A DNA stretch of 64,000 bases. Origin: Leucoraja erinacea (Eukaryota). The position numbers and the translations under genes are program-made. Location: positions 124,001 through 188,000 of the forward strand of contig NC_073406.1 of assembly GCF_028641065.1 (NCBI RefSeq), given 5' to 3'. The notes under the pieces were generated by a model that did no database searches, was not told the origin of the DNA, and saw only the letters and a list, made by a program, of their open reading frames with translations. This document shows, piece after piece, positions 1,699 through 64,000 of the stretch. Within the stretch, counting starts at the first letter, position 1. Each line of letters begins with the position of its first letter.

Positions 1699-2053
1699 AA
1701 TGTGAATACATGAGAAAGTTTCATTCAGGAAATAGATTTTTCATTCGCCATGTGTTGCCGTTCATAATGCAATATCCAGTCTGAAGAAGGGTCTCGACCC
1801 AAAATGTCACCTACACATGTTCTCCAGAGATGCTGTCTAACCTGCTGAGTTACTCCAGCACTTTGTGACCTCTGTAGTTGATATCATTTCAATGCAGTAT
1901 GAAGCGTGGCTGTAACACTGGGCAAAATGCAAAGTGCTGGAGGAATCTAGTGGGTCAGGCATCATCATGTGTAGAGGGAATGGACTGTTGATGTTTTTAG
2001 TCAACTTGAGTCCACTGCGTTTCCTTCCTACAGTCTGGTGATGCTTGTCGTGT

Positions 2054-2206
2054 TGATACAGGTGTGCCAATGAGTATTGTCATGGTGATACAGGTGTGCC
2101 AATGAGTATTGTCATGGTGATACAGGTGTGCCAATGAGTATTGTCATGGTGATACAGGTGTGCCAATGAGTATTGTCATGGTGATACAGGTGTGCCATTG
2201 AGTATT
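2054..2206. repeat. Minisatellite, 32-bp unit, about 5 copies
   Basis: (tgatacaggtgtgccaatgagtattgtcatgg)n. Confidence 0.95.
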
Positions 2207-2680
2207 CTTTGTTCCGTACTTAAGTTGCCAGGAACTGATCTACAAAACTAATGGGAAACTGTTCATTCTACTTTGCTTCCACTCCAGGAACCAGCACTCT
2301 TTAGTCAGGACATGTGCATTCTGCACAACACCTGTTGTGGGATGTTCTCCTTTAGATAGTGTTAATATTGTCACATGTGCCGAGGTACACTGAACAGTTT
2401 TCTGCAGCACCTGATCAGATTGCAATGTCCTTAGCATCAGGATTCTAACTAATTCCAGTTGCTTTTGGTAAAAGCTAAGCTTACTTTCCCAGCCCCTGAG
2501 ATGAAGAAAAGCCTAATAACAGAAAGTACCATGGTGAGGATGTGGTAGAATCAGAGACAAATATTCTCATCACGTCTCATTCACAGTGACTAATATAGAA
2601 TGGCTACAAGGGGTAATTAGGTACAATCTCCTCTCAGGACTCAGCAACTTATGAATTGAATAAAGAACTAAAGAATCACA

Positions 2681-4175
2681 GGTAGACAAAAATGCTGGAG
2701 AAACTCAGCGGGTGAGGCAGCATCTATGGAGTGAAGGAAATAGGCAACGTTTGGGGTCGAGACCCTTCTTTAGACTGATGTGAGGGTGGGGGGAGCGGGA
2801 AGTAGAAAGGAAGAGGCGGAGCCAGTGGGCTGAGGGAGAGCTGGGAAGGGGAGGAGAAAGCAGGGACTACCTGAAATTAGAGAAGTCAGTGTTCATACCC
2901 AAGCGGAATATGAGGTGCTGCTCCTCCAATTTACGGTGGGCCTCACTCTGGCCATGGAGGAGGCCCAGGACAGAGAGGTCGGATTCGGAATGGGAGGGGG
3001 AGTTGATTAATCACCGGGAGATCAGGTTGGTTATTGCGGACTGAGCGGAGGTGTTCGGCGAAACGATCGCCAAGCCTACGCTTGGTCTCACCGATGTAGA
3101 TCAGCTGACACCTAGAGCAGCGGATGCAATAGATGAGGTTGGAGGAGGTGCAGGTGAACCTCTGTCGCACCTGGAACGACTGCTTGGGTCCTTGAATGGA
3201 GTCAAGGGGGGAGGTAAAGCGACAAGTGTAGCATTTCCTGCGGTTGCAACGGAAAGTGCCCGGAGAGGGGGTGGTTTGGATGGGAAGGGACGAATTGACC
3301 AGGGAGTTACAGAGGGAGCGGTCTCTGCGGAAGGCAGACAGGGGAGGAGATGGGAAGATGTGGCCAGTGGTGGGATCCCGTTGGAGATGGCGAAAATGTT
3401 GGACGATTATTCGTTGTATGTGACGGCTGGTGGAGTGGAAGGTGAGGACAAGGGGGACTCTGCCCTTGTTACGTGTGGGGGGATGGGGAGAGAGAGCAGG
3501 GTTACGGGGTATAGAAGAGACCCTGGTGAGAGCCTCATCTATGGTAAAAGAGGGGAACTCCTGTTCCCTGAAGAATGAGGACATCTCCGATGCCCTGGTG
3601 AGGAACGCCTCATCCTGGGAGCAGATGCGGCGTAGACGGAGGAATTGGGAGTAGGGGATGGAGTCCTTACAGGAAGCAGGGTGGGAAGAAGTGTAGTCTA
3701 GATAGCCATGGGAGTCAGTGGGTTTATAGTGGATCTGGGTCAGAAGTCTATCCCCTACAATGGTGATAGTGCGGTCAAAAAATGGTAGGGAAGTGTCGGA
3801 AATGGTCCAGGTGTATTTGAGTGCCGGATGGAAGTTAGTGGTGAAATGGATGAAGTCAGTGGGTTGTGTGGGTGCAGGAGGTGCCATCAATGCAATTGTT
3901 GATGTAGCGGTGGTAGAGTTTGGGGATGGGGCCCTGGTATGTCTCGAACAAAGATTGTTCAACGTACCCTTCAAAGAGGCAGGCATAGCTGGGGCCCATG
4001 CGTGTGCCCATAGCTACACCTTGTATTTGGAGGAAAGTTGTTACGGGTAAGGACCAGCTCCGCTAGGCGGAGGAGAGTATCAATAGGTGGGGATTGGTTG
4101 GTTCTGTGGTCGAGAAAGAAACGGAGGGCTTTAAGACGCTCCTGGTGGGGATAGAGGTGTCAAGTGACTGGACAT
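2681..4175 (-). mobile_element. Penelope-like retroelement, 5'-truncated (RT C-terminus, GIY-YIG endonuclease, 3' terminal repeat)
   Basis: ORF 2943-3986 has NFHPALKYTWTIS..LPFFD..YKPTDSHGYLDYTSSHP..SIPYSQFLRLRRICS (PLE RT thumb), a Cys-rich linker CNRRKCYTC, and NLIYCIRCSRCQLIYIGETKRRLGDRFAEH (GIY-YIG). Confidence 0.9.
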
Positions 4176-5329
4176 TCATTCACCAGCCTCATTGACCAGA
4201 TCTACAACACCAAGCATCAAAGGTCTTCACTCTATCTCGATACACATGACAATCATAAACTAAACTAAACTCCCCATTGAAGGTATGTTTCATGGCACCT
4301 GTCTGAACGTGGGGAGATCTCGAAGACACCAGGGAACAAGTAGCTACGAGACTCACGATGAAAGGAGTCCACACCCCATCAAGGGCAGTTCAACTGTGGA
4401 ATCCGGGCTGTTAATGTCCGGGCTTTCTGATTACTACTTTGCCCAAGGTCAGGATCATAAAATAGTCATTTCAATCACCTCTGAGGTTAATGCGTGGTAA
4501 TAACTGACATTCTTAAGACTTACAAATCGCGTATTAATGCTAATAATGAACATTCCAGCATGTTTAATGCTGAAATAAAGGAGTTCAGACAGGTTAAACA
4601 ATTGAACAACACCCAGCCCCATGCATGTTGATCAGCTCCTAACGCAGTGTACGATGCAGCCAAATGTCCCTCATTCCCCAACGTAGCCTCTTGGGGAAAC
4701 ATAGCCTCAAAGAGAGATTCATTAACTGGGAAATGTATAATGTGGAGCACAGAAGTGGTAGAGCAATTAAAACAATACTTTGGTTCTCTTCATGGCAATC
4801 AAGTGCTTAATATGAAGCAGTAATGAAAGGAAACATTAGTTAACAGAAAGTTCTGGAGAAAGTAATGACACTGAAAGCCATTCAATTCCCAGGCCCAATA
4901 ATCTATATCCCAGAACACTAAAAATGTTTTCCTTGGAAACAGTAGAAGCTTTGGTGGTCATCTTTCAACATTCCCATCCTTATGATCTGGCTTCAAATTT
5001 AACCAGGAGGATTGCAAAATATTTGCCTCATTTCCCAATTGTTTTTTTATCAAAAGGCATTAGATGTTCCTTAAGTTTTTGCAAACAGTAAAAACTGAAG
5101 CCACAAGGTAAAGCAAGGCTAAAGACCCATAAAATGCAACTCTTGAGGACTGTGACATCCCAGAACTCATGGACAATATTGAGCTAGATGCACAGTTTGT
5201 GTCTGTAATTCGCCACAGTGACTGCTTTGGGATCCAGAGCAAACCCACACAATCACATGGAAAAACTGCACAGATAGATAGCACAAGAGTCAGCACTGAA
5301 CCTGAATCACTGGCTCTGTGAAGCAGCTG

Positions 5330-5646
5330 TCGTGTGCTGGGGCAGCAGGGTGAAGGCCATGGACACCAAGAGGATCAACAAAATCATCAGGAAGGCCGGC
5401 TCCATCCTGGGGGTGGAGTTGGATTCACTGGAGATGGTCTTGGAGGGGAGGATGCTCCTGAAACTGTGGAGCATCCTGGACAATACAGCTCACCCCCTCC
5501 CTGACACACTGGTCAACTTGAGGACCACCTTCAGCAACAGACTGGTTCCACCAAGATGCAGCACAGAACGCCACAGGAGATCCTTCTTCCCTGTAGCTAT
5601 CAAACTGTACAACTCCTCCCCATTCTGTCGTGGGGTAGACTGAGAC

Positions 5647-5692
<46 letters not shown>

Positions 5693-5835
5693 CCACCCCC
5701 CTCCACCCACGTAATCTTTGCACATCCCCTAATGCGCATCCCCACTGGTCACTTTAATTTCATGTTTCATGTATTTTGTGATATTATGGCTGTTGGCCTC
5801 CTGGGATAAATAAAGTTCTATTGTATTGTGTCGTT
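5330..5835 (+). mobile_element. Rex/Babar-type LINE 3' fragment
   Basis: ...PPRCSTERHRRSFFPVAIKLYNSS C-terminus and an AATAAA tail. Related pieces at about 62460-62660, 32300-33110 and 47320-47640. Confidence 0.75.
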
Positions 5836-8059
5836 TATATTTATATTTAAAACATTTTAATTCCTTTCAAGGTAAAATATTTTTGTGTTTCACAGTGAAA
5901 TACAGAAAATGTAGCAGAAATATAGCCTTATACATTAACATTTCTCAGCCATAAAACTAATCTGTATGGTCCTGACCCAAATGTCACATGTCCATTTCCT
6001 TCCTGATGAGTTCTTTCAGCGCTTTTTGCTCCATATTCCAGCATCTGCAGTTCCTTGTGCCCTCACATTCCAAGCTGGGTTTTTGATAAAGGTGTTGGAA
6101 ATACTTTGTAGACCTGGCAACATTATTAGAGAGTGAAATCTGTAATTAACTCAAAGTCCAGGTCCAAGGTCCAAATAATTGCCTGTCACGCTGAGTTACT
6201 CCAGCTTTTTGTGTCTACAATATCTTTGATTTAAACCAGCATCTGCAGTTCCTAGCCATACGAATGGTGCAGTTGAATTGTGGGAGGCGGTGAGATTAAA
6301 TGATTGGATCTGAAGAACTGCAGGCAGGTGGGACTAATGTAGCTGGGACAAGTCGGCCAGTGTGGGAAAGTTGGGCCGAAGGGCCTGTTTCCATACTGTA
6401 TCACTCTATGACTCTAACTGGTTCTGGCACTGACAGAGTATTGAGCATAGCTCCTCTAGAACCACCTTTCATTTCTAGATAACTGTCAGTACAGGGTAGC
6501 TAGCGAGATCACATTGCCTGTATTCCACAGAACACATTCATTTGGCTGAGGAAAGGAAGATGTTAATAATTAAATAAACAGAAGAACAAAGTAACTCAGG
6601 AAAAATGGGAGTTGAGAAGATGAAGATGGCCCTTCGGCCCAACTTGCCCACACCGGCCAACATGTCCCAGCTACACCAGTTAAAGTTACAGAAAGTTTTC
6701 AAAATAAAAGAAAGGTAGAAGAAGAAATAAAACATCTTTTCATACAAAAGAATATAAACAAAATAAGCGGAAGAGAGACGAAATGTAAAATGAGATGGAA
6801 GGGTTAAAACTCTTCTAAAACAATTGCATCACTTCCCATCTGGTTCTTGTGGGTTCACCACAACTGGTTAAATGCAGTTAGTCCCGGTTATTATACATGC
6901 ATGCCAGAAAGTGAACTGCATGGTACCTGTCACAGGCTGGATGTGGTCCCTTTAACACCCTCGAACCTTGTGGTCTACATTCCACATTCAAGCTGAGGTC
7001 TGCATGTAATCCTTGGGTAAGCCTTGAGCCATCACTATGGCAACTGGTCAGGGACCTTTCATCTAGCATTACGAAGTAGTTAGAATCTTTTTTTATTTAT
7101 AATCAGCTCTCAACAGTCATATATAATGCTGATTGTTGATTTCATGTTTAATATTCCTATTCCATGTTGACCTTTGCTAGTTTATAGATTTAGATATTGA
7201 GTTATCATAAAGCCATGCAGCATGGAAACAGGCCCACTGACCCCACTCATTCATGCCAAAGTGGAGATGGTCAAGAGCTTTGTGTATCACCAACACTTTG
7301 TCCACGACCAACCACAGCCAAGAAAGCAGACTGATGTCTCTTTGTTTGGCATGCCTCCAACATCTGTTAGCAACTTCCACAGATGCACCATAGGCCTGTA
7401 TGTTCCTGTTACAGTGAAAGGCAAGAGTAGGGAACCCTGGATGACCAAAGATATTGATGCTCTTGTCAGAATAAAAGGCGGGGTCAGGTACTAGAGTCTG
7501 GGATCAAGTGAATCACTTGAGGAGTATTAGGGATGCAAGAATATACATGAACAATCAAGAAGCCAAAATGTGGGCAAGAGTTAGATTAAAGAGAATCCAA
7601 AGACATTTTATATATGTGGAAAACAAGTAACTGAGGACAGAACAGGGCCCCTTAAAGACCCAAGAACATTTCCTAGTTCCAGTGTCTCTGCTCACCAAGT
7701 CCAAAGATGGCCTCTGATTCACTGGTTCCACCATGTGGTCGATGTAGGAATTGCAAGGACTGGTCAAGCCTGCATTTGGAGTTGACCACTGTAGTGGTCG
7801 CTGCCCCATTACAGGAAGGGTGTGGAGGCTTTGGGGAGGCTACACGGGGAGGTTGGACAGACTTGGATTGTTTTCACTGAAATGCACGATATTGCAGAGA
7901 GACCCGATATAGATTCATAGCCATTGAGTCACTGAGAGGAAACAGGCCCTTGGGCTCAACATGCCCCATCTACACTAGTCCCACCTGCCTCTGTTTGGCT
8001 CATATCCCTCTAAACATTTCCTAACAATGTTCCAGTTTTAATGTTTTTTAACCATTGGA

Positions 8060-8958
8060 TACCACCGGGTGGTTCCATCGTCAATGGCAGCCTCACCAAC
8101 GGTCTGTCTGTCTTTTCATCCATTTTGTTATTTTTTGTGTGTTTTAAAAAGTTTGTGTTAATGTTCTCTGTTTTTTTTAATGTGGGGGGTGGGGGGTGAG
8201 TGGGAAACCTTCTTCAATCTCTTGCCTTGCCGGAGATGCGATCGTTTTCTGGATCATATCTCCAGTCGCTCTGTAGCCTAACATCATGGAGCTGGTGGCC
8301 GTGCTCGAGACTGACTTTGAGCCCCACCGCGGGGCCGTGGACTTACCGTCGGAGCCTGTGCTCCTTTGCCTGGCATCTACGCTCCAACCGCGGCCCGTGG
8401 ATTTCAACATCAAGGAGCTCGCGATCTCGGGTAGAGGCCAATGTCGGGAAGCTCCAAAATCGCAGAAGGTTTGACCAGCCCTGACCCGGGGCCCAATCGC
8501 CCAGCGCGGGGGAGCTGAGATCCCCCCGATGTGTGAGCTTGATCGCCCCGACAACAGATGCTCGAGGCCCCTGACCAAGAACAAAGGGAAGATAAGGATA
8601 AGGGGGAAATATTTTAGGACCGAGATGAGAAAAACATTTTTTACACAGAGAGTGGTGAATCTGTGGAACTCTCTGCCACAGAAGGTAGTTGAGGCCAGTT
8701 CATTGGCTATATTTAAGAGGGAGTTAGATGTGGCCCTTGTGGCTAAAGGGATCAGGGGGTATGGAGAGAAGGCAGGTAAAGATTGAACTATTTTTGCCCC
8801 ATCACAGTGAGGAATGTGGGGGAGTCGCTGAGGTGGATGTTCATGTTAAACATTTATTTGTGTGTCTTGTTGCTTTTTATTGGTATGACTGTACGGCAAA
8901 TCAAATTCCTCGTTTGTTGCCAAACACACTTGGCTAATAAAGTATGATGATGATGATT
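8060..8958 (+). mobile_element. GC-rich non-coding retroposon-like element (interrupted by a CR1 piece at about 8588-8782)
   Basis: Related to 54770-55660; ends aataaag(tga)n. It interrupts a CR1 tail that resumes at 8959. Confidence 0.55.
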
Positions 8959-9560
8959 AGTACCTGCTTTAACCACCTCCCCTGGCAGCCTCTTTATATA
9001 CCTACCATCCTTCCTGTAAAATAGTTGCTCCTCAGGTTCATAGAAACATAGAAATTAGGTGCTAGGCCTTCGGCCCTTCGAGCCTATTTAATATGATCAT
9101 TCTCATCCAACTCAGTATCCCGTACCTGCCTTCTCTCCATACCCTGTCCCCTTGGCCACAAGGGCCACATCTAACTCCCTCTTAAATATAGCCAATGAAA
9201 CTGGCCTCAACCCCTCTGTGGCAGAGAGTTCCAGAGATTCACCACTCTCTGGTGAAAAAAGTTCTCCTCATCTCGGTTTTAAAGGATTTCCCCCTTATCC
9301 TTAAGCTGATTCCTATTAAATCTTTCTCCCCTTAGCTTAAACCCCTGTCCTCTGGTTCTCGATTCCCCTTCTCTGGGAAAAAGACACTGTGCATTCACCC
9401 TATCTATTCTTCTCGTGATCTTATACACCTCTATAAGATCACCCCTCATCCTCTTACGCTCCAAGTAATAAAGTCCTGCTCAACCTTTCCCTGTACCTCA
9501 GGCCCTTGAGTCCTGGCAACATCCTCGTATATTTTCTCTGCACCCTATAAAATTATGGGA
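8959..9560 (-). mobile_element. CR1 3' fragments (a younger copy at about 9040-9308 nested in an older one)
   Basis: RMRGDLIEVYKI..ESRTRG ORF remnant and a catagaaacatagaaa tail. Confidence 0.75.
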
Positions 9561-10789
9561 GGTAATTCACCTCCACCAAACTCCCACTGGGAGCAGTGAT
9601 GATCATTTTTAGAACCAATGGGAAACTGTTCAATCTATTGCAACCAAACTCCAGAAGCAGAATCGCCTAAACTTCAGTTGTTGAGTATTCAGACAATGCC
9701 TTTGTTAGTCCATGCTCCAGGTTAAAGATGGGCCTTGTACTCAACATCTGAAGACAAAGGTCCTCTGGTTAAACTGGTGTCTCCTGCACCAAAAGGTGAG
9801 AGCTTGGAAAACATGGAGCACCTCCATATTGACAACCGCCCCCTGACAATGGTAGCCCACCAATGACGAAATTTACCATCTCCTTCAATGGTCCACCATA
9901 GTCTTTGGTTCATTGATCAGATTTTTAGGCCTCATGGTCCAAAGAGCAGCATTAATCCTAGCCCTTCTTTGTGCTTCCAATTCCTGGACTAACAACTCAA
10001 GTGGACTAACAACTCAAGTTCAAGTTTATTGTCATGTGTCCCTGATAGGACAATGAAACTCTTGCTTTGCTTCAGCACACAGAACATAATAGGCATTGAC
10101 TACAAAACACATGAACTCAAGTGGACAAACAATTCAACTGACAGGAACATTTAGTCACAGGAGCATTCTCCACACTGTTTGCAAGGGTTATGAACCTACT
10201 CTCCCAGGCCCACATTCCCAGCAGTATGGAGAGGAACTGCAGGTGCTGGTGTATACCAAAGATCGACACAAAGTGTTAAATGGTCAGTTCGACATAGATT
10301 ACAAGACTTACACCAAACCCAAAACAATTAGGAGCAGACGAGGGCATTCGATCCAATTTGTGATCCCAGCTACAAAGACAGATGTGTACAGCAATTCGTT
10401 CTTCCCCCGCACAATTAAAGCATGGAATAATCTTCACCCTACCATAGTTACCCAACCAGATGCAACTAAATTTAAGGTAGCTCTTTCTTCCCAAAAACCC
10501 TTTCTGGCTTAAGTCCTCCTTCCACCACCAGTTTAAATTCCATTTGGATTATTTTGGAGGACCAAGAAACATAGAAATTAGGTGCAGGAGTAGGCCATTC
10601 GGCCCTTCGAGCCTGCACAAACCACGAAAGTGTTGTAGTAACTCAGCACGTCAGGATGCAGGATGGGTGACGTTTCTGTTCGGGAACCTCCTTCAGACCC
10701 AATGCATTCCCAGCAGTGGTGCCTTGGTTAGTCTCAATCAATCTCATTGGGCAAGCTATGGCATTCATGTGCCCGAAACCAGACTCATG

Positions 10790-11228
10790 TCATAAGTGAT
10801 AGGAGCAGAATTAGACCATTCGGCCCATCAAGTCTGCTCTGCCATTCAATCATGGCTAATCTATATCTCTCTCCTAACCCCATTCTCCTGCCTTCTCCTC
10901 ATAACCCGACACCCATGCTAATCAAGAATCTATCTATCTCTGCCTTAAAAATATCCATTGACTTGGCCTCCACAGCCTTCTATGGCAAAGAATTCCACAG
11001 ATTCACCACCCTGTGACTAAAGAAGTTCCTCCTCATCTCCTTCTTAAAGGAACGTCATTTAACTCCGAGGCTGTGACCTCTGGTCCTTGACTCTTCCACT
11101 AGTGGAAACATCCTCCCCAAATCACTCTATCCAAGCCTTTCACTATTGGCTAAGTTTCAATGAGTTTCCCCTCATCCTTCTAAACTCCAGCGAGTACAGG
11201 CCCAGTGCCGTCAAATGCTCATCATATG
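10790..11228 (-). mobile_element. CR1 3' fragment
   Basis: Similar to the 43185-43630 tail (ccattcggcccatc..ttccacagattcaccac). Confidence 0.75.
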
Positions 11229-11974
11229 GCGACTCACGAAACAGACCTTCTTTTCTGAGCTTTGCCATGAGAAAATAGGAAACAAGTCAATGTTGCTCAA
11301 AGTGCCTGTGCCTGCAGGCTGCTGGGTATCCTGCCCATAACTCCTGAAACTGGGACAGGATTCAAGCTGCTGCTGAGACAGACCACCCCTACATGGGATG
11401 GAAGCAGCGTCCCACCTCACAAACCACACCCCCTTTGACCATCAGTGGTCGCCACCATCCAGCTCGGACCCAGCGGCCTGTGGATGGACACAGTGGTGGA
11501 GAATCTCACGTCTGCAGAGAGGTCCCGACCCGAAACGTCACCCATCCTTTTTCTCCAGAGATGCTGCCTGACCCAAGTTACTCCAGCACTTTGTGTCTAT
11601 CTTTGGTATATAGCAACATCTGCAGTTCTGCCGACATACCTTGAGCCTGAGGGGCTCCCTCAGAAGAAAAACAGTAGGCGTCACACTGAGAAACACGGCA
11701 AAAAATGTAATTATGAATAAAAGTTCACAAGAACTGGGCAGTGAAACATCAACATCTGAACAAATCAAGTAGCTACTGTTGGATTTGTACTGAACGCTCA
11801 TGTGGTAGATGCGATACTAAAGTATTGTGAATAAAGAACAAAATCCAGTCTCATCAAAGGGAAACAAGCCAGACCTGGCCATAACGTGGCTGCATTGACC
11901 CTAGAGTGACGTATGTTCTCAGTTGCAGAAGAGGCATTCTGTCAAAACAGCAAGAACGGTCTCGAAACGTCACC

Positions 11975-12190
11975 ATTCCTTCTCTCCAGAGATGCTGCCT
12001 GTCCCACTGAGTTACTCCAGCACTTTGTACCTATCCACATTCTCCAGAGAGGCTGCCTGTCCCACTGAGTTACTCCAGCACTATCCACATTCTCCAGAGA
12101 GGCTGCCTGTCCCACTGAGTTACTCCAGCACTATCCACATTCTCCAGAGATGCTGCCTGTCCCACTGAGTTACTCCAGCATTTTGTACCT
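11975..12190. repeat. Tandem array (4 copies) of an internal part of the Penelope-derived short repeat
   Basis: (ttctccagagaggctgcctgtcccactgagttactccagcactatccaca)n. Confidence 0.9.
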
Positions 12191-13817: not shown

Positions 13818-14236
13818 TTACAACTCTTGCTTTGTAGATGGAATATTCAGAGCTGCTGTTGACTTTGTATCTGGGACAGTGGGTGCCGGCTCCATAGTTT
13901 TTATCATGTGTTCAGGAACTTTGCTGCCTTCGGTCATTGACCCCTTCACCTCCGTCTCTTGCTCTGCAGCGTCCCCTGCAGGTTCCGCCCCATCCTGCGG
14001 CTTGTGGATGGGCTCAGGGGCTGGGCGCTCGCTTGACCGGTGGTCAGTGACCGGTGGTCGGTGGGGACATCGCTTGACCGGTGGTCAGTGGGGACATCGC
14101 TTGGACGGTGGTCGGTGGGGACATCGTTTGACCGGTGGTCAGTGGGGACGGGCTCCTTGACGTCCCCCTCATCTGGCTGCAGCTCCTCCTCCATCCCAAA
14201 CAACATATTCACCAAGTCATCGGCCTCAATCCTTTC
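13818..14236 (-). CDS. P3H1: P3H1 terminal coding exon 15. Frameshifted as assembled; the intended end is probably ...PSTKQEL*
   Basis: cag|ERIEADDLVNMLFGMEEEL..., followed by (VPTDHRSxD)n repeats. The literal frame stops at 13946 (...SKRRR*). The shifted frame after a 13-nt-short repeat unit at about 14048 runs to KQEL-TAA at 13818. Confidence 0.88.
14031..14149 (-). repeat. Coding 27-bp tandem repeat inside P3H1 exon 15
   Basis: (gcttgaccggtggtcagtggggacatc)n, encoding VPTDHRSxD; one junction lacks 13 nt. Confidence 0.95.
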
Positions 14237-14504
14237 CTGGGAACAGACAGAGCTGGTTAGTCATCGGACACTGAGCAACCAAGACTGGGACTGCCGGGGT
14301 CTGGGCATAAACACGTGGGCTCTGGGGCTTGTTGCTACATTATACTTTCCTATGGTCTATACTCTATACTTCTCCATGTTCTATACTTTTCTATGTTCTA
14401 TGTTTAATAAAATGAAGAGAGAAGGAAAGTTAAAACATTATAGAAAAGGAAGACCAATGAAACAGGAAAATCTACCTGATTTAGCATTACATACAGTATC
14501 TTGT

Positions 14505-15711: not shown

Positions 15712-15852
15712 CCGTTCTTTCTGCGTGGGATCCAAGGTGAACCAGAGTGCCACTCCACACCTCTGCCCTTTAGTCACAGCTTGCACTCCATGAGGATTCT
15801 CCGCCCCTGATGAGAAGGCCACCACACGACCACACTTTGGGTTCACCATCGC
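15712..15852 (-). CDS. P3H1: P3H1 exon 14 (distal His and 2OG-binding Arg)
   Basis: cag|AMVNPKCGRVVAFSSGAENPHGVQAVTKGQRCGVALWFTLDPTQKER|gtac; 141 bp. Confidence 0.97.
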
Positions 15853-52903: not shown

Positions 52904-53986
52904 CTGAAATGCAAACACACACAGCTATGTTTCAATGCATACGTTTGAATGCAGGTACAGCAAATCATTAGTCTAATGAAATGTTGAGCTCTAATGCAAG
53001 TTTCAGTGCTGTCTTACAGGGTACTGATGACACCTCACGTGGAGTACTTTGTGCACATTTGGTCCCATATAGGGTCACACAGCATGGAAACTGGCCCTTC
53101 AGCCCAACTTGCCCATGCTGACCCACAGGGCCCATCTACGCTTGACCTACCTGCCTCCATTTGGACAGGTGCATGGGTGGATGTATATTCATGCATTGGA
53201 AGCAGTGCACAGAAAGCTCACTAGGTTTAATTCCTGGAAATAATTGATTGTTGCATTAAAGTTGAGCAAGTTAGGCCAAAGCTCGCTAAAGTATTGTGGA
53301 ATTATAGGAGACTTGGCAGGATGGATCCTGAGATGATTTTCCTCATCTGGGTGTATCTACAACTAAGAGGCACATATTCAAAAAAAGGAATTCAAGGGGA
53401 GATGAGGATGAATTTTCCTCTCAGGAGATCGTGAATCTCTGGAACTTTCTACTTTAGAGAGCTAAGGGATTAATGTAAAAGGTTCAAAGGGCTGAATGTA
53501 TCTGTTTGTGGTCCATGTATTCAGATGTTCTGCTAACCTTCAGTGAAAATATCTAAACTTTATTATACCTGGGATGATTGACTTATGAAGAAATGTCTTA
53601 TTTTATGAAAAAGGTTATCAATAATAATCTCACACTAACTTTGTGCATAATTTATACAACCAATGAGGCTCTGGATTTAATCCCTGACCACTGCTTAATT
53701 AACTAGTTATTAGAAAGGGGATGGAGCAGAGCTAATTTTCCCTTCCCCCAAACTTTGTCCAGCTGCAGTTTGAACAAGTAGAGCAAGTGTGAACATCAGA
53801 TGCTGTCTCAGCCTGCCAAATTTAAATCTAACTTGTCGAGTAGGGGTTACTAAGTCACTTAGGTGGTATATCAGTCAATCTATAATGATAGCATTTTAAG
53901 ACTAGACGAAAGGCATTAGTAAGTACTATATATTGGTCATCGATATGTATTTGATTCAAGAGTTTTAGGAAAGAGCTGTCTGGCAC

Positions 53987-54136
53987 CTTGATATTTTCAC
54001 CCATCTTCTCATCGGTAAGGACTCTCAGCAAATCATGCACAAAGTTCTCAGCTGTTGTACTTGCAAGAAAGTGCGATGGATTGGCATGGAATGCTGCTAC
54101 CTTTTGGGTCCATTCGTGATTAGACGACACTGCCAT
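53987..54136 (-). CDS. AP5B1: AP-5 complex subunit beta-1, first coding exon
   Basis: gccATGg; MAVSSNHEWTQKVAAFHANPSHFLASTTAENFVHDLLRVLTDEKMGENIK|gtgcc; 150 bp, phase 0. Acceptor cag lies 12 nt upstream of the ATG (exon starts about 54148). Confidence 0.88.
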
Positions 54137-54403
54137 GGCACTGAATTACTGCGAGAGAGGAAATTACAGATGAACACAGTTATAATTCTCCTTCTCAAAG
54201 TACAGAACCCCCCACCACCACCACCCTCGCCTCCCTAATATTGGATCTTCATTAGTTAACAATGGAGTTATTTCACATCCATTGCCACCTGGGAAAGAAG
54301 GGGTAGTTGGTCTAGACAGTTTGTGAAGCCATCTCATAAGCTATCAATCTACCTGATAGTGCCAAAGTGCCTGATGCTGCCACAAGATATGATTGGGGAA
54401 ATG

Positions 54404-54592
54404 GAGACACAAGCAATTGCAAATGCTAGAATCTTGAGCCTGTTTCCACGCTGTGTCTCTAAACTAAACAAAAACAAAGCGCTGGTGGAACTCAGCGGGT
54501 CAGGCAGTACCTCTGGTGGGAATGGACAAGCAAAGTCACCTGTCCATTCTCTCCAAAGACGCTGCCTGACCTGCTGAGTCTCTCCAGCACTT
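54404..54592. mobile_element. Inverted pair of the Penelope-derived short repeat with perfect 16-bp TSD
   Basis: tatgattggggaaatg at 54388-54403 and 54593-54608. Confidence 0.78.
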
Positions 54593-54769
54593 TATGATTG
54601 GGGAAATGTCTATCACTCATTCTCAGCAGAGTGTAATGGAATAATGTTCACTCCACAGTCACGAGTTAGCAGCATAGCCCAAGGACAACTAATTTTAAGT
54701 ACACAAGAAATAATAGGAATAGGCTGTTTTATCCCACTGTCTACTCCATTATTCAAGAGGTATGGGAGT

Positions 54770-55660
54770 CAGTGAGGGCGCTGCGAGATGGCTGCCTTGC
54801 CAGTAGCGTGTTAGTCAATTCTACTTTTTTTGTTTCTTTTAGTATGTCCAAATGTTTGTTTTAATGTCGCTTGGTGTGTCTTGTGTGGGGGGTGGTGAGG
54901 GGGGGGAAGGGGGGGAACCGCTTTCGGTCGCCTCCTTCACGGAGAGGCGACTTTTTCCATGTCGCCTCCCTCGTGCCTAACACCAAGGATTGGTGCGGCC
55001 TTTCCCAGAGTCGGGCCTGGAGCTTCAGCAGTGGGCGCAGCGTGAACTTTTCATAGCGGAGTGGGTGAGCCCGTGCCGGGGATCGCCAGAAGGGAGTGCT
55101 CCGATCGCTGGCCCACGGCAGCCTGAAGCCGCGGTCCGCGGAGATTCTAGCTGGCGCGGCGTCCGGTGCCTGGGATACCTCGTTTAGGAACCTGGAGCAG
55201 AAGAGCTCCGACTGCCGGCCCGCGGCCTACATCATCTAGAAGCCACGGACCGTGGTGTTTCTAACCACGGGCGCAGCGGGGACTTACTTACTTACCATCC
55301 GGAGCGGGATCCCTCGCCGGGAATTCCTGGAGAAGAGCTCCGACCGCCGGCCTGCGGCCTACACCATCTTCAAGCCGGGGTCTCCCGTAGGGAAGCACCG
55401 ATTCGGGACTTACCTTGCCTGTACATCTGGCCGCCCGCAGCGGCGACTATGGAGGTTTATGGTCCAGACCATGGGGAAAAATGGAGAAGGACTGACAGAA
55501 CTTTGTGCCTTCCACCATAGTGATGAATGCTGTGGTGGATGTTTTGTGGTAAATGTTTTATTGTATATTGTGTGTTTTGTTTTTTTTAATTGTACCACTG
55601 CAGGCAAGTTCATTTCACTGCACTTCATTGAGTATGTAATGAATAAATCTGACTAATGAC
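54770..55660 (+). mobile_element. GC-rich non-coding retroposon-like element with a Rex/Babar-like 3' tail
   Basis: Shares 5' and 3' blocks with 8060-8958 and has internal direct repeats. Ends catttcactgcac..aataaatctgactaatgact. Confidence 0.6.
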
Positions 55661-57204
55661 TGCAACATTGTCTGCCCATTTCTCTTCACAGATACTGCCC
55701 AACTCGCTGAGTTCATCCAGCAGTTTGTCTTTTGCTCAAAGATTCCAGTATCTGCAGTCTCTTATGTATTGATTTAGGACTTACTTTTCAAAGAGTAAAG
55801 CAGCTCATCACTGCAAAATTAAAACATTACGAGGCAAACTGACAATGAATTGAGGCGGTGGGAAAGGGGTTAAAAAAAACAGCACAATGAAAGGATGTAG
55901 TTTGGTCAGGATGTGATTGTTGGTATGCACACAAGCAATTTGTCGTTGAAAATAATTTATCATTCTTCAGAGGAACTATAATAATTGGGCACTGGACTGA
56001 ACTATGAGTGATCAAATACATTTACAAGTGGTTTAAGAGTGATGATTATATTTTCTCTAAGAATTGGCATTGGTTTGGATCCAAAAATACACACAGTCCA
56101 GTTCCAATTGTGCAGGACTTAGAGCTTCATATGAATGTTGCCAAAAGGGAACTTCTGAAAAAAATCACAAAACTATAAAGGCAAGAAATCTGAAATAAAA
56201 CTAGAAAATACAGGAAACAGTCAGCAGGCCGGGTGGGATCTGTGGAGAGAACCAGAATGAATGTTTCAGGTCGAAGCCCATTCGTCACAATGATCTTTCA
56301 CCTGAAGTATTAGAAACTAAAAGGATGGCTTTGGAATGGTTCTGACAGAAGGCCATTGAGCTGAAATGTTAATCCTATTTCTCTTTCCCCTGATATTCCC
56401 CAGACTGCTGGCTGTTTCCAGCATTTTCAGTTTGTCTTTCCAGAGCCACTAAGAGTTTTCAGGTTTTGTTTAAAATGTCTGCAAATAAAAGGTGCAAGAA
56501 CAAAACGGTTTGTAATATACACCGCATACAAGACCATACCTAAACTGTAGGCTAAATATCTAAAATTCAGATTTGTGTTGCAGATAAGACAGACAGAATT
56601 GAGAAAAAATTATAGTTACTGTTATTAATTGAAGTAATTGGCAGTCAGTTGGTTTTTGATAGCTTGTCCAACAGGCTCAGTCCTATGATCACCCTGTGGG
56701 GCCAAACCATCGTTTGACATTCACACTGCTGTCCTGGAGGGGATGCAAGGAAGGAAAGCTCAGAACATATAAACATCTTTTAAAACTCTTCCATTATTTT
56801 ATTACATTATGCATGTGGAATATTTTAGCTTGGTTACTTTTTTAATTCAATGCTCATTCCTCTGTGCACTTTGGTTTAGTGCACGAATCCAGCATTATGG
56901 AGAGTCTGTGGCAACAACAGGGAGGACTACAGTTTGCTATCAATGGAGGGATATCGGAGACCATACAAGTTGGAGTGGGCTACTTCTGTCCTTGCACTGA
57001 GTAATCTTCAATATTATATGTAGAAAGGAACTACAGATACTGGTTTATACTGAAGATAGACAAAAAGCGCGGGAGTCACCCATTGGGTGACAGAGCCTCG
57101 CAGGTCAAGTCAGCGGTCGATGAGGGCGCCAGCAGTCGAGAACATGCCACATGGGAGCCGGAGAACTCACCGCCAGGAACAAAGGAATACGCGAGGGTAC
57201 CACT

Positions 57205-57253
<49 letters not shown>

Positions 57254-57499
57254 AAAAACAAAAGAGGACCTGCCGCGGGATACATTACCAGTGCCCTTTA
57301 TGTGGCAACTATTTGTATACTGTGTGTTTGTGAGCAAAGAATTTCACTGTGACTTGTCATTCATCTCTAAACCCACCCTTTTTCTCCAGGGACGCTGCCT
57401 GACCATCTGTGTTACTCCAGCAATTTGTGTCTATCTTACATGTGCAATATTACATGTTCGGTAATGCTTTAGCTGCAAGTAATTTAGCTATGTACATCG

Positions 57500-58360
57500 C
57501 TTTCTTCACTGCCTGCTGCACCTGCATGCTTACTTTCATAGACTGATGTACAAGGACCCCCCAGATCCCATTGTACTTCCCCTTTTCCCAACTTGACGCC
57601 ATTTAGATAGCAATCTGCCTTGCTGTTTTTGCTACCAAAGTGGATAACCTCACATTTATCCGCATTAAATTTCATCTGCCATGCATCTGCCCACTCTCCC
57701 AACCTGTCCAAGTCACCCTGCATTCTCATAGCATCCTCCTCACAGTTCACACTGCCACCCAGCTTTGTGTCATCTGCAAATTTGCTAATGTTACTTTGAA
57801 TCCCTTCATCCAAATCATTGATGTATATTGTAAATAGCTGCGGTCCCAGCACCGAGCCTTGCGGTACCCCACTAGTCACTGCCTGCCATGAAAGGGGCCC
57901 GTTAATCCCTACTCTTTGTTTCCTGTCTGCCAACCACTTCATGTCACTCTACCCCTTATACCATGTGCCCTAATTTTGCCCACTAATCTCCTATGTGGGA
58001 CCTTATCAAATGCTTTCTGAAAGTCCAGGTACACTACATCCATTGGCTCTCGCTTGTCCATTTTCCTTGTTACATCTTCAAAAAATTCCAGAAGATTAGT
58101 CAAGCATGATTTCCCCTTCGTAAATCCATGCTGACTCGGACTGATCCTGTTACTGCTATCCAAATGTTCGGCTATGTCATCTTTTATAATTGACTCCAGC
58201 ATCTTCATCACCACCAGTCAGGCTAACGTCTATAATTCCCTGTTTTCTCTCACCTGCCTTTCTTAAAAAGTGGGATAACAATAGCTATACTCCAATCCAC
58301 AGGAACTGATCCTGAGTCTATAGAATTTTGGAAAATTATCACCAATGCATCCACGATTTC
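57500..58360 (-). mobile_element. CR1-type LINE RT fragment
   Basis: SQHGFTKGKSCLTNLLEFF..YLDFQKAFDKVPH and VTSGVPQGSVLGPQLFTIYINDL..KFADDTK, with frameshifts. Confidence 0.9.
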
Positions 58361-58779
58361 AACTGTTTGTGTGTGATCAATATCTCTCTACTGCTTGCCC
58401 TTCCATGTGCCTATCACACCACTATTGTATCTGTCTCCACCACCACCTGAGCAATGCTTTCCCTCACATCTCCATTAAACTTTAGCCCTCTCACATCATA
58501 GCTTTGCCCACAAGTGTTGGATCACTCCGAGAAAAAGGTTCTGTTCACACAATTATGTCTCTCTTAATTGTATACAGTTCTATCAAGCCTCCCTTCAACA
58601 GCCGACATTCCAGAGAAAACAATCGAAGTTTATCCAACCTCTCCCTGGAGTTGAAGCCCTCTAATCCAGACAGCCCTCTGGTGAACCTGCATCACACCGG
58701 CGCCAACGCCTCCGCACCCTTCCTCAATGCGATGCAGGTTGCTCCAGGACCCGGGCTGGAGCTCGCTGCCCCGGGCAGG

Positions 58780-59838
58780 GCTTGGGGGTCTGGGGTTTGG
58801 GGCTGGGGGCTGGGGACTGGGGTTGGGGGCTGGGGGATGGGAGCTGGGGCTGGGGACTGGGGTTGGGGGCTGGGGTCTGGGGTTTGGGGCTGGGGGATGG
58901 GAGCTGGGGGCTGGGGACTGGGGTTGGGGACTGGGGTTGGGGGCTGGGGCTGGGGGATGGGAGCTGGGGGCTGGGTTTGGGACTGGGGTTGGGGCTGGGG
59001 CTGGGGGATGGGGCTGGGGCTTGGAGCTGGGGTTTGGGGTTGGGGACTGGGGGTCTGGGGTTTGGGGCTGGGGGATGGGAGCTGGGGGCTGGGGACTGGG
59101 GTTGGGGGCTGGGGGATGGGAGCTGGGGGCTGGGGGCTGGGGGTTGGGGGCTGGGGCTGGGGGGATGGGGCTTGGGGCTTGGAGCTGGGGTTTGGGGTTG
59201 GGGACTGGGGGGTCTGGGGTTGGGGCTGGGGGATGGGAGCTGGGGGCTGGGGACTGGGGTTGGGGGCTGGGGCTGGGGGCTGGGCTGGGGGATGGGGCTT
59301 GGAGCTGGGAGCTGGGTTTGGGGCTGGGGTTTGGGGTTTAGGGCTGGGGCTGGGGGATGGGGCTTGGAGCTGGGGACTGGGGGCTGGGGTTGGGGGGGGC
59401 TGGGGTTGGGGGATGGGACAGAGCTGGGGACTGGGGGCTGGGGTTTGGGTACTGGGGGCTGGGGTTTGGGGGATGGGAGCTGGGGACTGGGTTTGGGGCT
59501 TGGAGCTTGGGTTTAGGGCTGGGTTTTGGGTTCTGGGGCTGGGATGGGAGCTGGGGACTGGGGTTTTGGGGTTGGGGGCTTGGAGCTGGGGTTTGGGGAT
59601 GGGGGTTGGGGATGGGGCGAGGGGGTTTGGGGCTTGGAGCTGGGGTTTAGGGCTGGGGTTTGGGTTCTGGGGCTGGGGGATGGAGCTGGGGACTGGGTTT
59701 GGGGGTTGGGGTTGGGGTTTGGGGATGGGGCTTGGAGCTGGGGTTGGGGGTTGGGGGATGGGGCTGAGGTTTGGGGGTGGGGTTTGGGGATGGGGGGATG
59801 GGGGCTGGGAGCTGGGGTTTGGGGATGGGGTTGGGGGC
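58780..59838. repeat. G-rich (TGGGGS)n satellite in AP5B1 intron 1
   Basis: About 1.05 kb of GGGG/GGGGG runs separated by 1-4 nt linkers (ct, tt, at, act, agct). Confidence 0.97.
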
Positions 59839-59879
59839 TACTGCTACTACTTTCACCCCCCGGCCCGGCCTGGGCCTTC

Positions 59880-60110
59880 CCCTTCCCCTCACCTGGAAAC
59901 GCCGCTTCGAGAGCCACGTGATGCGCAGCGGTCACGTGACACGAAGGGAGCGAACACGTGACGTCATTGCGGGGCAGGTTTCGTCCGCAGTGTGTGGCGC
60001 GACGCCATCTTTAGTGTGGGCAGTGCGCCGCTCGAGTCGCCTGAGCCGCCCCTTGGTGCGGTGACGGACCCGGCGCCATCTTTAGTATGGGCAGAGGGCC
60101 CTCACCGAGT
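59880..60110 (-). promoter_or_regulatory. AP5B1: CpG-rich promoter and non-coding first exon of AP5B1
   Basis: Minus-strand donor CCAG|gtgagg at 59893/59892. CACGTG at 59915 and 59955, GTCACGTGAC at 59931-59940, TGACGTCA at 59959-59966, and two YY1-type CGCCATCTT motifs (about 60003 and 60074). Confidence 0.7.
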
Positions 60111-60994
60111 GAGCCGTTTGGTGTGGTGAGGACATGGCAGAGAACACACAGGTTTTTCTTGATGCTCACTATATCTTTAAAGTACTTGTACCTTAATGTA
60201 ATAACATTCTAGTACGTTTTTCTAGTACGTAATGCAGAAACAGGCTCTTCGGCCCGCCATGTCCATTCGAACTATCAGTTATTCATCTATACCAATCCCA
60301 TTAACAAACAATGGTTCAATGCTAGTTTATTATCCCATGTACGTAGGCACAGTGGTCTATTCCCTTCTTGCCTTCACAGTTCATGTGCCTGTGAAGATAC
60401 TTACTTCACTGTTGTGAGGGGATCTACTTCACTACCCACACAAGCAATTGGTTCCAGATTCCAACCACATTCTGTGTGAACAAATGATTCCTCAGATCCC
60501 CTAAACCTCTTCATGCTAATCCTAAACCCAAGTCCTTTACTTTTTGACATCTCTGCTATGCGATTTCTGCTATCTATCGTATTTCCCTCATAATTTGGCA
60601 TATTTCATTCGTCAGTCTTTTATGCTCCATGAAAAAAACAGTTTAACCATTTTCTCTTCATAAGTGAAATGCTTAGGCGTTTCCAACACTGTCTTCCAAT
60701 TCAGGAACATTACCGGCCATAGAAAATACCTACATTCTATCCACGGAGGATATGAACGATTCACATGTCCCAGGCTGCCTATCAATGTAACTTTTTTCTT
60801 CAACTGCATCTTCATTCAATGCGTGATGAAAGTTTCACAGTAAAAGTGTGTGCACTCCAGCTCTCTGCAGGTTTGCATTGTCTTACTTGCTTTTTGGGGG
60901 GGGGGGGGGGGAAGGAAAGAATTGTCAAAACTCTGCAGCTTGGTTTTTGCTCCAGATTCCAGCAGCACCTGGAGTTTGATGTAGCACCTAGAGT

Positions 60995-61290
60995 TTAGAA
61001 ACATAGAAAATAGGTGCAGGAGTAGGCCATTCAGCCCTTCGAGCCTGCACCGCCATTCAATATGATCGTGGCTGATCGTCCAACTCAGTATCCTGTTCCT
61101 GCCTTCTCTCCATACCCCCCGATCCCTTTAGCCACAAGGGCCACATCTAACTCCCTCTTAAATATAGCCAATGAACTGGCCTCAACTACCTTCTGCGGCA
61201 GAGAATTCCAGAGATTCACCACTCTCTGTGTGAAAAAAGTTTTCCTCATCTCGGTCCTAAACGATTTCCCCCTTATCCTTAAACTATGAC
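60995..61290 (-). mobile_element. CR1 3' tail
   Basis: Near-identical to 43186-43479. Confidence 0.85.
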
Positions 61291-61599
61291 AGTTTGTTGG
61301 AGAAACTGAGCGGGTGAGGCAGCATCTATGGAGCGAAGGAAATAGGCGATGTTTCGGGTCGAGAAGCTTCTATCTCTTTTAGTTGCAAACTACTTTGCAA
61401 ACATCCTGTGAAAAGCACTAAATGAATGCAAACTTCTCATTTTCTGCCATAAATTAAACTTCGATTAATTTAAAAGTTTAAACATTCAATTTTCTTCTGA
61501 TCAGAGATGGCTCAAATGAAATAATTAAAAATTAGGATGTATCACCAGTGATGGTGGAAGACCAAAGGTTCAGTGAATTTGAATAGTTCAGTGAATAGC

Positions 61600-62180
61600 T
61601 GACAAGACTCTGATCAGACCCAAACTTGAATATTGCTCCGTGGTCTGGGATTCACAACACAAAGCAGATGAGGACAAGTTAGAAAGAATTCAAAATAGAG
61701 CTGCAAGGTTTACCGTTCGTGATTACAGCCGGGAGTCCACTATCACTAAAATCCTTGCTGATCCAGAGTGGGAAACTCATCAAGACCATCGGACCAAATT
61801 ACACCTGACGACCATCTATAAAGAAAATGCATGGGTTTATTCCAAGCAACATCAAGAGTCATATTCAATCTACAAATTCATCCAGTCAACCAAAGACCAT
61901 GCAATCGGGGGTTTTCAAATACAACATCATCCCAACAAATGAAGACTGTTATAGGTATTCACTGTACCCAAAGACAATTTGCCAATGGAAACATCTCCAC
62001 CATGACATTCGCACCGCACCTGACATCAAGACCTTCAAGACCAAGTTGGAAACAATCAAAATTAAGATGTTGACTTCGAAGGCCCACTTTAAAATTTAAT
62101 TATGTCTTTGCACATGACCCTCCTAATATGTGTGACAACCAGTGATGGTGATTATATGTCAAGATACAGATACAGATATT
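61600..62180 (+). mobile_element. L2/Crack-like LINE 3' fragment
   Basis: RPKLEYCSVVWD..KLERIQNRAARF..YRYSLYPKTICQW, with a (gataca)n tail. A related C-terminus (YSNSFFPRTIKAWNNL) lies at about 10275-10560. Clade assignment is tentative. Confidence 0.65.
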
Positions 62181-63767
62181 TCCTATTCTCACTTCAGAAT
62201 GATCACTGTTCCAGCTGAAGGAGAATGTAACCCGTAACGTCACCTATTTCTCTCCCGAGATGCTGCCTGTCCCGCTGAGTTACTCCAGCATTTTGTGGCT
62301 ACCTACAATTTCGTACACATCCTTTGACAAGCCATGTACCATTATATATTGGCTTTTCTTCATGATTACTGTGTCCAGATCCTGGAAATCCTTACAAACA
62401 CCACATTGTTTCTTCGGTTATACAATACGACAGAACTTTATTTATAAGAGGGAAATTGGTCTGCAACAGTCATAAAACACAAGATACATTAAATATGAAA
62501 TTAAAGTGACAAGTGAAAAGGATTGGGAATGTGCAAAGATTTGGTGTGGGGGGGGGGGTATGGAGGGGAATCAGTCTACCTCATGACAGAAGGGGAGGAG
62601 TTGTACAGTTTGATAGTACAATCCCCCCTCTTTTGTCGTGGGGAGACTGACTCCCCTCCCCCATTTGCATTCATCCATAAAGCCACGGTCAAGGTGGCAA
62701 CTCAACATTACCTTCCTTTGGACAATTAGGTGGAACAACAAGTCTTGCCAGTGATGCCATGTTCTGTAAATTTGTAAAAAAAAATGATGAAATTACAGTA
62801 TTTATTCCTGGTGATAATTTTGCTGATAAAGTTGCCTTTATAACAGTAAAAAATCCATTCTTGTACTCATGACAATATGTTTTATTTGTCAATTAAGCAA
62901 TTTAATATTTAAGTCATCTAAAGTGATTTCATACTGCTGCTTTTGGTGATTGTGAAAATGGACCATTCACATGTAGATTGGCATCAAGAGAAGGAGATGG
63001 AACTAACAGCTGGAAGATAGAATCCTAGATTGAAGGTGACCAGATTGTTTCTGTTATGTTTGTAATATTCAGTGATGGCCTATTCTGGTTTATATGTTAT
63101 TTGATGTTAGACAATGCACATATTGTTGTAGAATAAATGGTCGAGCTATTAGCTTAAACATGACACGGATCCCATGTTGTGAGGGGGATCCCAATAGACA
63201 TAATTTAAATAACTAATTAGAAGGGACAAGTGGCTTTCACAAACTATTTGATTGCTGCCTCACCCGCTGAGTTTCTCCAACAATTCTGTCTGTTAGATTT
63301 TTCCAGCATCTGCAGTTCTTTCCTCAACAGGGGATAGAATGGCAGGTTTTCAGTTACCAATGATGTCCACTCTAACTGGCCAGGCCAGACTAGTCTTGAT
63401 ATGGTGGTCAACATCAAAACCCCAATGAAACAATACAAGCAGAAAATTGTCATCAAATAATTGTGGCAATAATAAAGGAGGATAAGAAATTGACGAATAT
63501 TCAATCAGGAAAATAAAAATAACAAATGCTTGGGATAAGGGAGCATTGGGTAAGGCATTTTTGTGTGGTTGGAGGTTGAGTTGGCGAGGCACAGTGGGAA
63601 GGGCCTGTGGTGAAAGACTAGATGGCAGAAGGGTGGATGCAGTGGTGAGGGGTAGGGAAACTCAATTGATACAGTGCATTCAGAAAGTATTCGACCCCTT
63701 CACTTTTTCCACATTTTGTTACGTTACACCCTCTTTTATTACTTCAATGCAACATAAGGAATTTATG

Positions 63768-64000
63768 TTGGAAGGAACTGCAGATCCTGGTTTATACCGA
63801 AGATAGACACAAAGATAGACTGTTGGGGTCCTTGGAGTTGAGAGAGGAGGTATGGGAACAGGTGTTGCATATCCTGCGGTTGCAGGGGTAAGCACCTGGG
63901 GAATGGGTGTTTTGGGTGGGAAGGGATGAATTAACCAGGGAGCTGCTTAGGGAACAGTCTCTGCGGAAAGCGGAAAGCGGTGGAGATGTGACTTGTGGTG
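63768..64000 (-). mobile_element. Second, more diverged Penelope-like fragment running off the window edge
   Basis: 63822-64000 aligns by eye with 3185-3370. It is preceded by a copy of the short terminal repeat. Confidence 0.75.

Follow-up and report, generated by a model that had tools for sequence, protein, structure and literature searches.

Dispersed repeats in a stretch of the Leucoraja erinacea genome as probable truncated 3′ ends of a Neptune-type Penelope-like element with a minimal hammerhead motif

Penelope-like elements are retroelements that can carry hammerhead ribozyme motifs at their ends. The relevant passages of Cervera and De la Peña (2014; PMC4209133) describe a minimal hammerhead with an extra base after position 9, a G-C closing pair and a palindromic 15.2-16.2. 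They report it to be abundant as single copies on truncated elements, fish Neptune among the hosts, with low cleavage even as dimers and with a helix I of 2 bp in Drosophila virilis. Excerpts of other work give a Cys-rich CX2-5CxxC linker as a trait of Neptune, common also to Nematis (PMC8557442, PMC3846280), and an internal promoter in Penelope that starts inside the pseudo-long terminal repeat (pLTR; PMC2377424). For an anole element, the parts of PMC11167929 used here show two-site initiation by the reverse transcriptase (RT) in vitro, link an optional 30-40-nt tail to two RT start sites and state that the 5′ tail copy can serve RT as an internal start site; the hammerhead of that element cleaves only with the element protein, insertion in vitro proceeds without it, and no read ends were seen at its cut site. 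Retrozymes are described, in the sections cited, as tandemly repeated units that each contain a hammerhead (bioRxiv 10.64898/2026.07.22.740005, PMC7229834). Here we analyse a repeat that recurs throughout a 64-kb window, the whole stretch of 64,000 nucleotides at positions 124,001 to 188,000 of L. erinacea contig NC_073406.1, and compare it with these systems.

We consider it probable that the repeats are decayed, heavily 5′-truncated 3′ ends of a Neptune-type Penelope-like element and that they carry the known minimal hammerhead, broken in all but one copy. A profile seeded with 12 window copies (acceptance at E ≤ 0.01, reversed window as control) detected 50 arms in the window and none in the reversed window; a shorter initial profile gave 45 matches. 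The arms fall into 35 loci at a grouping gap of 120 bp and span 4004 bases, or 6.3% of the window, a density of about one copy per 1.8 kb. Searched alone, the 28-nt hammerhead motif had four window matches with ≤3 mismatches and none in 100 shuffles. The unit is ~135 nt long, and its consensus starts at the 5′ end with CUGAAGA, followed by a bulged A and a 4-bp stem II closed by a 4-nt loop, and then by GAAA, a CG palindrome that has no loop, and GUC or GUU. An earlier reading of the window (hereafter the sequence-only reading) had described a ~130-bp family with a CUGANGA box, a 4-bp stem II, GAAA and GUH, with which this consensus agrees, and all 19 repeat coordinates that it listed lie on or adjoin a profile match. 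Its figure of about 30 elements carrying the motif is too high: only 13 of the 50 arms reach the CUGANGA box.

The following features tie the repeat to a source element with an open reading frame (ORF):

2675..4180, minus strand: Penelope-like element, Neptune-type; C-terminal part of the RT, Cys-rich linker, GIY-YIG and 3′ untranslated region/pLTR; 5′-truncated, frameshifted, no tail
2746..2773, minus strand: hammerhead of this ORF-linked copy, broken at G5 and G12
63766..64000, minus strand: second Penelope ORF fragment, fused to the family tail via an internal deletion; Cys-rich linker visible

The minus-strand ORF of the first element (2943-4013) gave a GIY-YIG match at E=3e-4, weaker than the curated cut-off, and 135 longer relatives at E ≤ 1e-10, most of them with RT domains; the best named relative was from Chiloscyllium (bamboo shark, 66%). 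Full-length relatives with RT and GIY-YIG align to 2991-4179 in two frames (tblastn), and we therefore regard the copy at 2675-4180 as 5′-truncated and frameshifted. Both window ORF fragments contain a CxxxxCxxC Cys-rich linker between RT and the endonuclease (EN), and from its predicted protein the window element is assigned to the EN-containing (EN+) Penelope-like elements, Neptune-type by the linker. The hammerhead core lies on the sense strand, 94 nt 3′ of the ORF stop codon, which bears out the earlier claim that the repeat forms the 3′ end of the Penelope RT/GIY-YIG element on the sense strand of its ORF. The second ORF fragment shares 77% DNA identity with the first over 159 nt, and its tail junction lies within 63766-63991. 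No full-length Penelope copy between two pLTRs is present in the 64-kb window; the full-length two-pLTR structure was found in one relative, the metagenome contig L003, and partial-tandem joints in contigs of other runs. Protein scans of viral and prokaryote contigs yielded no relative that could be confirmed, and DNA patterns had no match in viral, prokaryote or metagenome collections.

Two side observations concern the ORF-linked element. Contigs from three organisms fuse its 3′ end (2681) to internal ORF position 3382, and one run fuses the 3′ end (2686) to ORF position 3734; these joints, at several times single-copy depth, may reflect subfamilies with an internal deletion or partial tandems common to these organisms. 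Across the ORF body (2805-4146), RNA reads show a ~1.3- to 5-fold bias, with the first mate on the minus strand, and none over the terminal unit; in most stranded libraries such a bias would mean RNA antisense to the Penelope ORF.

The motif itself was examined in the best 80 of 477 confirmed relatives, all from metagenome contigs, and counted among the 49 with at least 300 nt past the predicted ORF end. A minimal hammerhead is present in 22 of the 49, on the sense strand and 84-301 nt downstream of the ORF, and a shuffled-sequence control for the descriptor gave no match in 343 kb; the 22 are not independent, because several are near-copies. L003 is a near-complete Neptune-type element with a minimal hammerhead in both pLTRs (910-1110 and 3976-4176), the only such case among the 22. 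In an alignment of 15 relatives, hand-picked across families, with three window copies (18 sequences), 90.7% of cells pair and both sides change in seven of nine pairs. Since the descriptor demands stem II, helix I alone is an independent covariation result; all four of its pairs covary and 82% are paired, so that the covariation check proposed for the stems came out in favour of the motif. The search with Rfam hammerhead models, proposed alongside it, did not: none of nine matches at E ≤ 5 belongs to a hammerhead family. Rfam Plastid-psbJ matches in the window arise from inverted arms.

In the consensus and in the copy at 21792 we find the core boxes, the bulged base, the G-C closing pair and the loopless palindromic helix III on which the minimal-hammerhead reading was based, and stem I, described as 2-3 bp, is 2 bp long in young window copies. 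In four other runs, 94-99% of reads (or of contig depth) have at 2771 the intact G5 base that the 2773 copy has lost, and the family consensus therefore has a complete core. Two features speak against activity: the 2-bp helix I, and predicted folds in which the core pairs with the pyrimidine tract that follows it. Cleavage of hammerhead dimers has reportedly been observed by Luense et al. (cited through a review). In one poly(A) run of a relative there was no pile-up of RNA ends at the hammerhead, which is weak evidence. Broken in all copies but one here, the hammerhead is likely to be inactive in host transcripts. The one supplement of PMC4209133 that we searched contains no shark or skate terms.

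Insertion anatomy is that of truncated Penelope copies. The 3′ ends are bimodal, with 19 of the 50 arms ending at model 91-110 and 23 at model 121-137, and the two ends differ by an optional ~35-nt tail; they suggest two RT start sites in the window element. Nine loci were flagged as head-to-head pairs and eight were retained. The 46892/47054 pair was taken as two insertions because the 47054 copy has its own 11-bp duplication. As judged by eye, the tail is on exactly one arm in six of the eight pairs and on neither arm in the other two. Target duplications of 9, 9 and 10 bp were found at three of six head-to-head loci tested, against a background in which 114 of 2000 random intervals reach at least 9 bp, and a 15-bp duplication flanks the copy at 32158. 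Relatives also show inverted arms. The copies are as follows (head-to-head insertions have no single strand):

17418..17613: head-to-head insertion; 9-bp target duplication; minus arm has the tail
19934..20165: head-to-head insertion; arms join at the TCAG-T-CTGA palindrome; 9-bp target duplication; minus arm has the tail
21691..21881: head-to-head insertion; 10-bp target duplication; tail only on the plus arm; complete motif in the minus arm
21761..21795, minus strand: sole complete motif; bulged A, 3-bp stem II by the descriptor, loopless palindrome, 2-bp helix I; intronic in P3H1, sense to the gene
44506..44737: head-to-head insertion, intronic in the DUF2452 gene; plus arm begins just upstream of the core and is tailed; target duplication not found
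1776..1872, plus strand: single copy, start just upstream of the core, tail-less
10627..10698, minus strand: single copy, start just upstream of the core
11508..11632, plus strand: single tailed copy, start just upstream of the core
18186..18317, minus strand: single tailed copy, start just upstream of the core
47044..47197, plus strand: single 134-nt copy with tail; 11-bp target duplication with 1 mismatch; start 4-5 nt upstream of the core
62214..62311, plus strand: single copy, start just upstream of the core
12650..12790, plus strand: longer copy, reaching ~40 nt further upstream into the pyrimidine tract
46892..47000, minus strand: internally deleted copy running upstream into the pyrimidine tract
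32136..32273, plus strand: tailed copy, start near the predicted cut site; 15-bp flanking duplication
11952..12195, plus strand: four partial units in a local tandem array; no CUGANGA box in the repeated units
36096..36259, minus strand: local tandem array of 66-nt partial units without CUGANGA box
1..63324: other copies, starting within or past the core, several old and diverged (1-45, 1927-2002, 5964, 6180, 10232, 16878, 19589-19820, 22003-22139, 24012-24128, 26986, 30677, 31502, 42242, 54455-54597, 55675, 56205, 57019, 57371, 61295, 63253)

A sharp 5′ boundary sets the short copies apart. Nine of the 12 loci that bear the core begin within ~6 nt upstream of it, and the other three continue into the pyrimidine tract. 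The truncation rate over model 9-90 gives an expectation of 8.8% for such starts (p ~5e-8, for ends judged by eye, a small n and a model seeded from the same copies). Boundary columns agree to −6 and then drop to chance level, with 3/9 in agreement at −7, and the pyrimidine fraction of the short-copy flanks is 0.26-0.61, against a comparison range of 0.70-0.91. The boundary word, TCAGTCT, is a small palindrome and also fits the initiator consensus YYANWYY.

Given the internal pLTR promoter and internal RT start described for Penelope elements, run-off at an RNA start is the simplest cause of this boundary, and a template RNA beginning at TCAGT would most likely be responsible. The short copies might be a 'strong-stop' footprint, a reading that is possible but less likely than not, in which RT would start internally on the 5′ tail and run off at the transcript start, 3-5 nt before the core. 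Put together, the element's RT/GIY-YIG protein would nick DNA and start reverse transcription downstream of the hammerhead, at either of two sites ~35 nt from each other. In the window sequence, the cDNA has mostly stopped early, and a second, inverted arm has often been added, with 9-11-bp target duplications left behind. Many cDNAs end ≤~6 nt upstream of the CUGANGA box, where a template RNA with the initiator-like TCAGT at its start would let RT that had started on the 5′ tail copy run off the end. Inserted copies then decay neutrally. Cleavage by the hammerhead would require a dimer and probably the element protein as well, as the excerpts of PMC4209133 and PMC11167929 suggest.

Several results weigh against this account. 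By eye, most invertebrate relatives lack a conserved initiator-like word ahead of the core. In a related organism, raw RNA reads show no pile-up of starts or ends across the stretch. The summed contig depth of DNA-like runs is ~4.0 million at the core, not above the 3-6.5 million at the ORF 3′ end; such depth is no copy number, and it does not reproduce the short-copy excess of the window. Target duplications of at least 9 bp were found at only five of the loci tested, and most single copies show none. The ORF-to-end junction is unbroken in only one of the 35 loci, and this big excess of short copies counts against truncation because a short master element would also produce it. In contrast to the contig depth, raw poly(A) reads of a related organism fall from 1558 at 2771 to ~70-110 just upstream, with ~490 in the ORF end. 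Depth of unique flanks is 20-27, far below that of the core and the ORF end; several organisms therefore have the family in very high numbers, with many longer truncated copies among them.

Two further candidate causes of the boundary were rejected. Cleavage-defined 5′ ends are not the main class, as ~6 of the 50 arms start at model 31-40, around the cut site, with no excess over neighbouring bins. A ~92-nt intron was also considered: at 2776-2870 on the minus strand, a donor-like CAG/GT sits at the ORF stop and, ~92 nt from it, a pyrimidine tract runs into CAG directly before the hammerhead, an arrangement that resembles a D. virilis intron with its 3′ end against helix I. The match of short copies to the spliced junction stops at −6, none of the 15 joints listed out of ~500 is the spliced one, and helix I would be no longer after splicing.

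Fold-back or an RT stall at the TCAG-T-CTGA palindrome is an alternative for the boundary alone; it is compatible with truncation, and we hold it possible, if rather doubtful. The arms at 19934-20165 join exactly at the palindrome, inverted-junction palindromes are published for rotifer Penelope elements, and a T at −6, which lengthens the palindrome by one pair, is found in seven of nine short copies and in none of the three longer ones, a difference that is marginal given that 25 columns were examined. However, most boundary copies are single arms without an inverted partner, other head-to-head junctions lie elsewhere in the unit, and agreement with the fold-back product stops at −6.

We think it unlikely that the repeats are instead a discrete ~135-nt non-autonomous element, similar to a short interspersed nuclear element (SINE) and derived from the Penelope end, which would start at TCAGT, have its own transcription and be mobilised in trans by the Penelope protein; this is the view of the sequence-only reading without its retrozyme label. 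A short copy could act as template, because Penelope has an internal promoter and pLTR sequences can mobilise DNA in trans. The sharp boundary shared by nine of the 12 core-bearing loci, one copy of exactly such extent inside a target duplication and the excess of short copies would all be expected of it, and given that boundary a short master element is possible. But 37 of the 50 arms begin at scattered points in the unit and three extend upstream, and each of the two young sequence types is matched by an ORF-linked relative (by pairwise identities within this one window). RNA over the unit is unstranded (2316 versus 2527), as host read-through would predict if the library is a stranded one.

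The sequence-only reading had proposed a non-autonomous, retrozyme-like family mobilised by the element. Its Penelope origin stands; a separate family is not shown, because the copies have the anatomy of 5′-truncated Penelope insertions and two ORF-linked members lie in the window, and the retrozyme label fails because both tandem arrays repeat partial units without the core. A non-LTR (long terminal repeat) retrozyme spreading via self-cleaved circular RNA would account for the hammerhead motif and the Penelope-end origin, both as proposed for retrozymes, and for some head-to-tail joints of the terminal unit in contigs of other runs. We nevertheless regard it as very improbable: copies are dispersed and either single or inverted, helix I has 2 bp versus 6 bp in canonical type I motifs, and 5′ ends cluster upstream of the core, away from the cut site. 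Taken as a whole, the sequence-only reading was right on origin and motif, overstated the number of motif-bearing copies and is unsupported on the retrozyme-like family.

Genomic copies decay neutrally. Two of the 13 arms that reach the CUGANGA box keep all core bases and one of these also keeps the stems; 21792 on the minus strand is the only copy that satisfies the full minimal-hammerhead descriptor, and the other 12 core-spanning arms fail it. At non-CpG positions, with 12 subfamily-variable columns left out of the flank set, the core matches the consensus at 113/130 (87%) and other positions at 504/559 (90%; p=0.27). No selection on the core in genomic copies was accordingly found, as its conservation equals that of the flanks: the excess conservation expected for the core boxes is missing from the window copies and present across species in the parent element. 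CpG loss, which had been put forward as a mark of decayed copies, is evident as TG or CA at 49 of 111 CpG sites. Older, diverged subfamilies lie at 1-45, 19589-19820, 22003-22139, 24012-24128 and 56205-56427, with tails that carry an acceptor-like pyrimidine run ending in CAG; in one such copy (19744) the 3′ strand of helix I could pair better than in young copies.

Three host genes were placed by ORF scans:

13821..35600, minus strand: P3H1; 18 arms, 10 sense and 8 antisense; last exon placed only by a terminal KQEL
38590..45540, plus strand: DUF2452 gene, C1orf50-like; 3 arms
50278..54140, minus strand: AP5B1, coding span; 0 arms

Outside these spans lie 29 of the 50 arms. Repeats had been placed in the introns of all three genes, which holds for P3H1 and the DUF2452 gene and not for the AP5B1 coding span; the nearest copy is ~320 bp upstream of it, and a 5′ untranslated region intron would fall outside this count of the coding span only. 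The copy at 21762-21795 does have the full core and is sense to P3H1 pre-mRNA, as claimed: it passes the descriptor and sits between P3H1 exons, within a long hairpin built with its inverted arm. It has no partner in cis, because the other core-reaching sense arms in P3H1 are broken. That this intact intronic copy is a working ribozyme affecting P3H1 RNA, as its complete core and sense orientation might suggest, is most improbable, since one intact copy in 13 fits neutral decay, helix I has 2 bp including a U-G pair, predicted monomer and dimer folds differ from the hammerhead fold, and the P3H1 strand counts (10 versus 8) show no bias against sense copies. With nearly all intronic motifs broken and a core that is conserved no more than its flanks, a role for host genes is unsupported and a host role for Penelope-tail motifs is unlikely. 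The putative last P3H1 exon (13821-14260, minus strand) has a short internal VPTDHR-like repeat before the terminal KQEL.

The window also contains other repeats. A separate dispersed family (8593-8781, 26160-26454, 43186-43480, 60996-61290 and 10565; youngest copies 94-97% alike) is likely the 3′ end of a long interspersed nuclear element (LINE) or a SINE, and one of its copies adjoins the 61295 element. LINE-type RT fragments (Pfam RVT_1) lie on the plus strand at 25040-26131 and 47310-47450, the former also matching Pfam ALKBH8_N at E=1.7e-12. Minisatellite arrays, both intronic and intergenic, occupy 1365-1700, 2040-2200, 21100-21320, 27300-27590, 39170-40000, 40980-41530, 48250-49000 and 58740-59820, and a run of N is found at 34367-34618.

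The main catch is ordinary, because work printed in 2014 already described minimal hammerheads at Penelope ends and how truncated copies disperse them. Our literature search, which covered openly accessible papers, found no paper on this Penelope-tail family or its 5′ boundary, and the family may already be named in Repbase, Dfam or supplements. With about one copy per 1.8 kb, the lineage offers a very large natural data set for the mechanics of Penelope insertion. A boundary upstream of the core and off the cut site bears on where Penelope templates start and on hammerhead cutting in vivo. If the strong-stop reading is true, the boundary maps the RNA start of the element in vivo and an uncleaved leader is the main template; each short copy would then be a potential SINE-like seed equipped with a promoter, a ribozyme and a site for RT binding. 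With its helix I of 2 bp, the ribozyme may be weak or dead even though the family has spread with great success.

Compared with the described systems, and as far as the passages cited from each extend, the window copies resemble the minimal hammerheads of Penelope (Cervera and De la Peña, 2014; PMC4209133). They share with these the type I topology, the CUGANGA and GAAA boxes and the pLTR location, the extra base between 9 and 10.1 with the G10.1-C11.1 pair, the palindromic 15.2-16.2 without loop 3, and the occurrence on truncated copies, mostly as single motifs; the helix I of young window copies, at 2 bp, is shorter than that of Schistosoma (4-5 bp) and of most relatives we retrieved (3-6 bp). 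Non-LTR retrozymes are likewise hammerhead-bearing, non-coding and akin to Penelope pLTRs, with one chondrichthyan genome reported, but they are tandem with a hammerhead per unit, whereas the window copies are dispersed, inverted and tailed and have a minimal motif. With EN+ Penelope insertions of the Neptune clade (PMC8557442, PMC3846280, PMC11167929) the window shares the RT, Cys-rich linker and C-terminal GIY-YIG, the strong 5′ truncation, the adjacent inverted arm, the 30-40-nt tail at one end and 8-10-bp target duplications; it differs from those published in how very densely its end-only copies lie, with 35 loci in 64 kb, and in the sharp 5′ boundary before the hammerhead.

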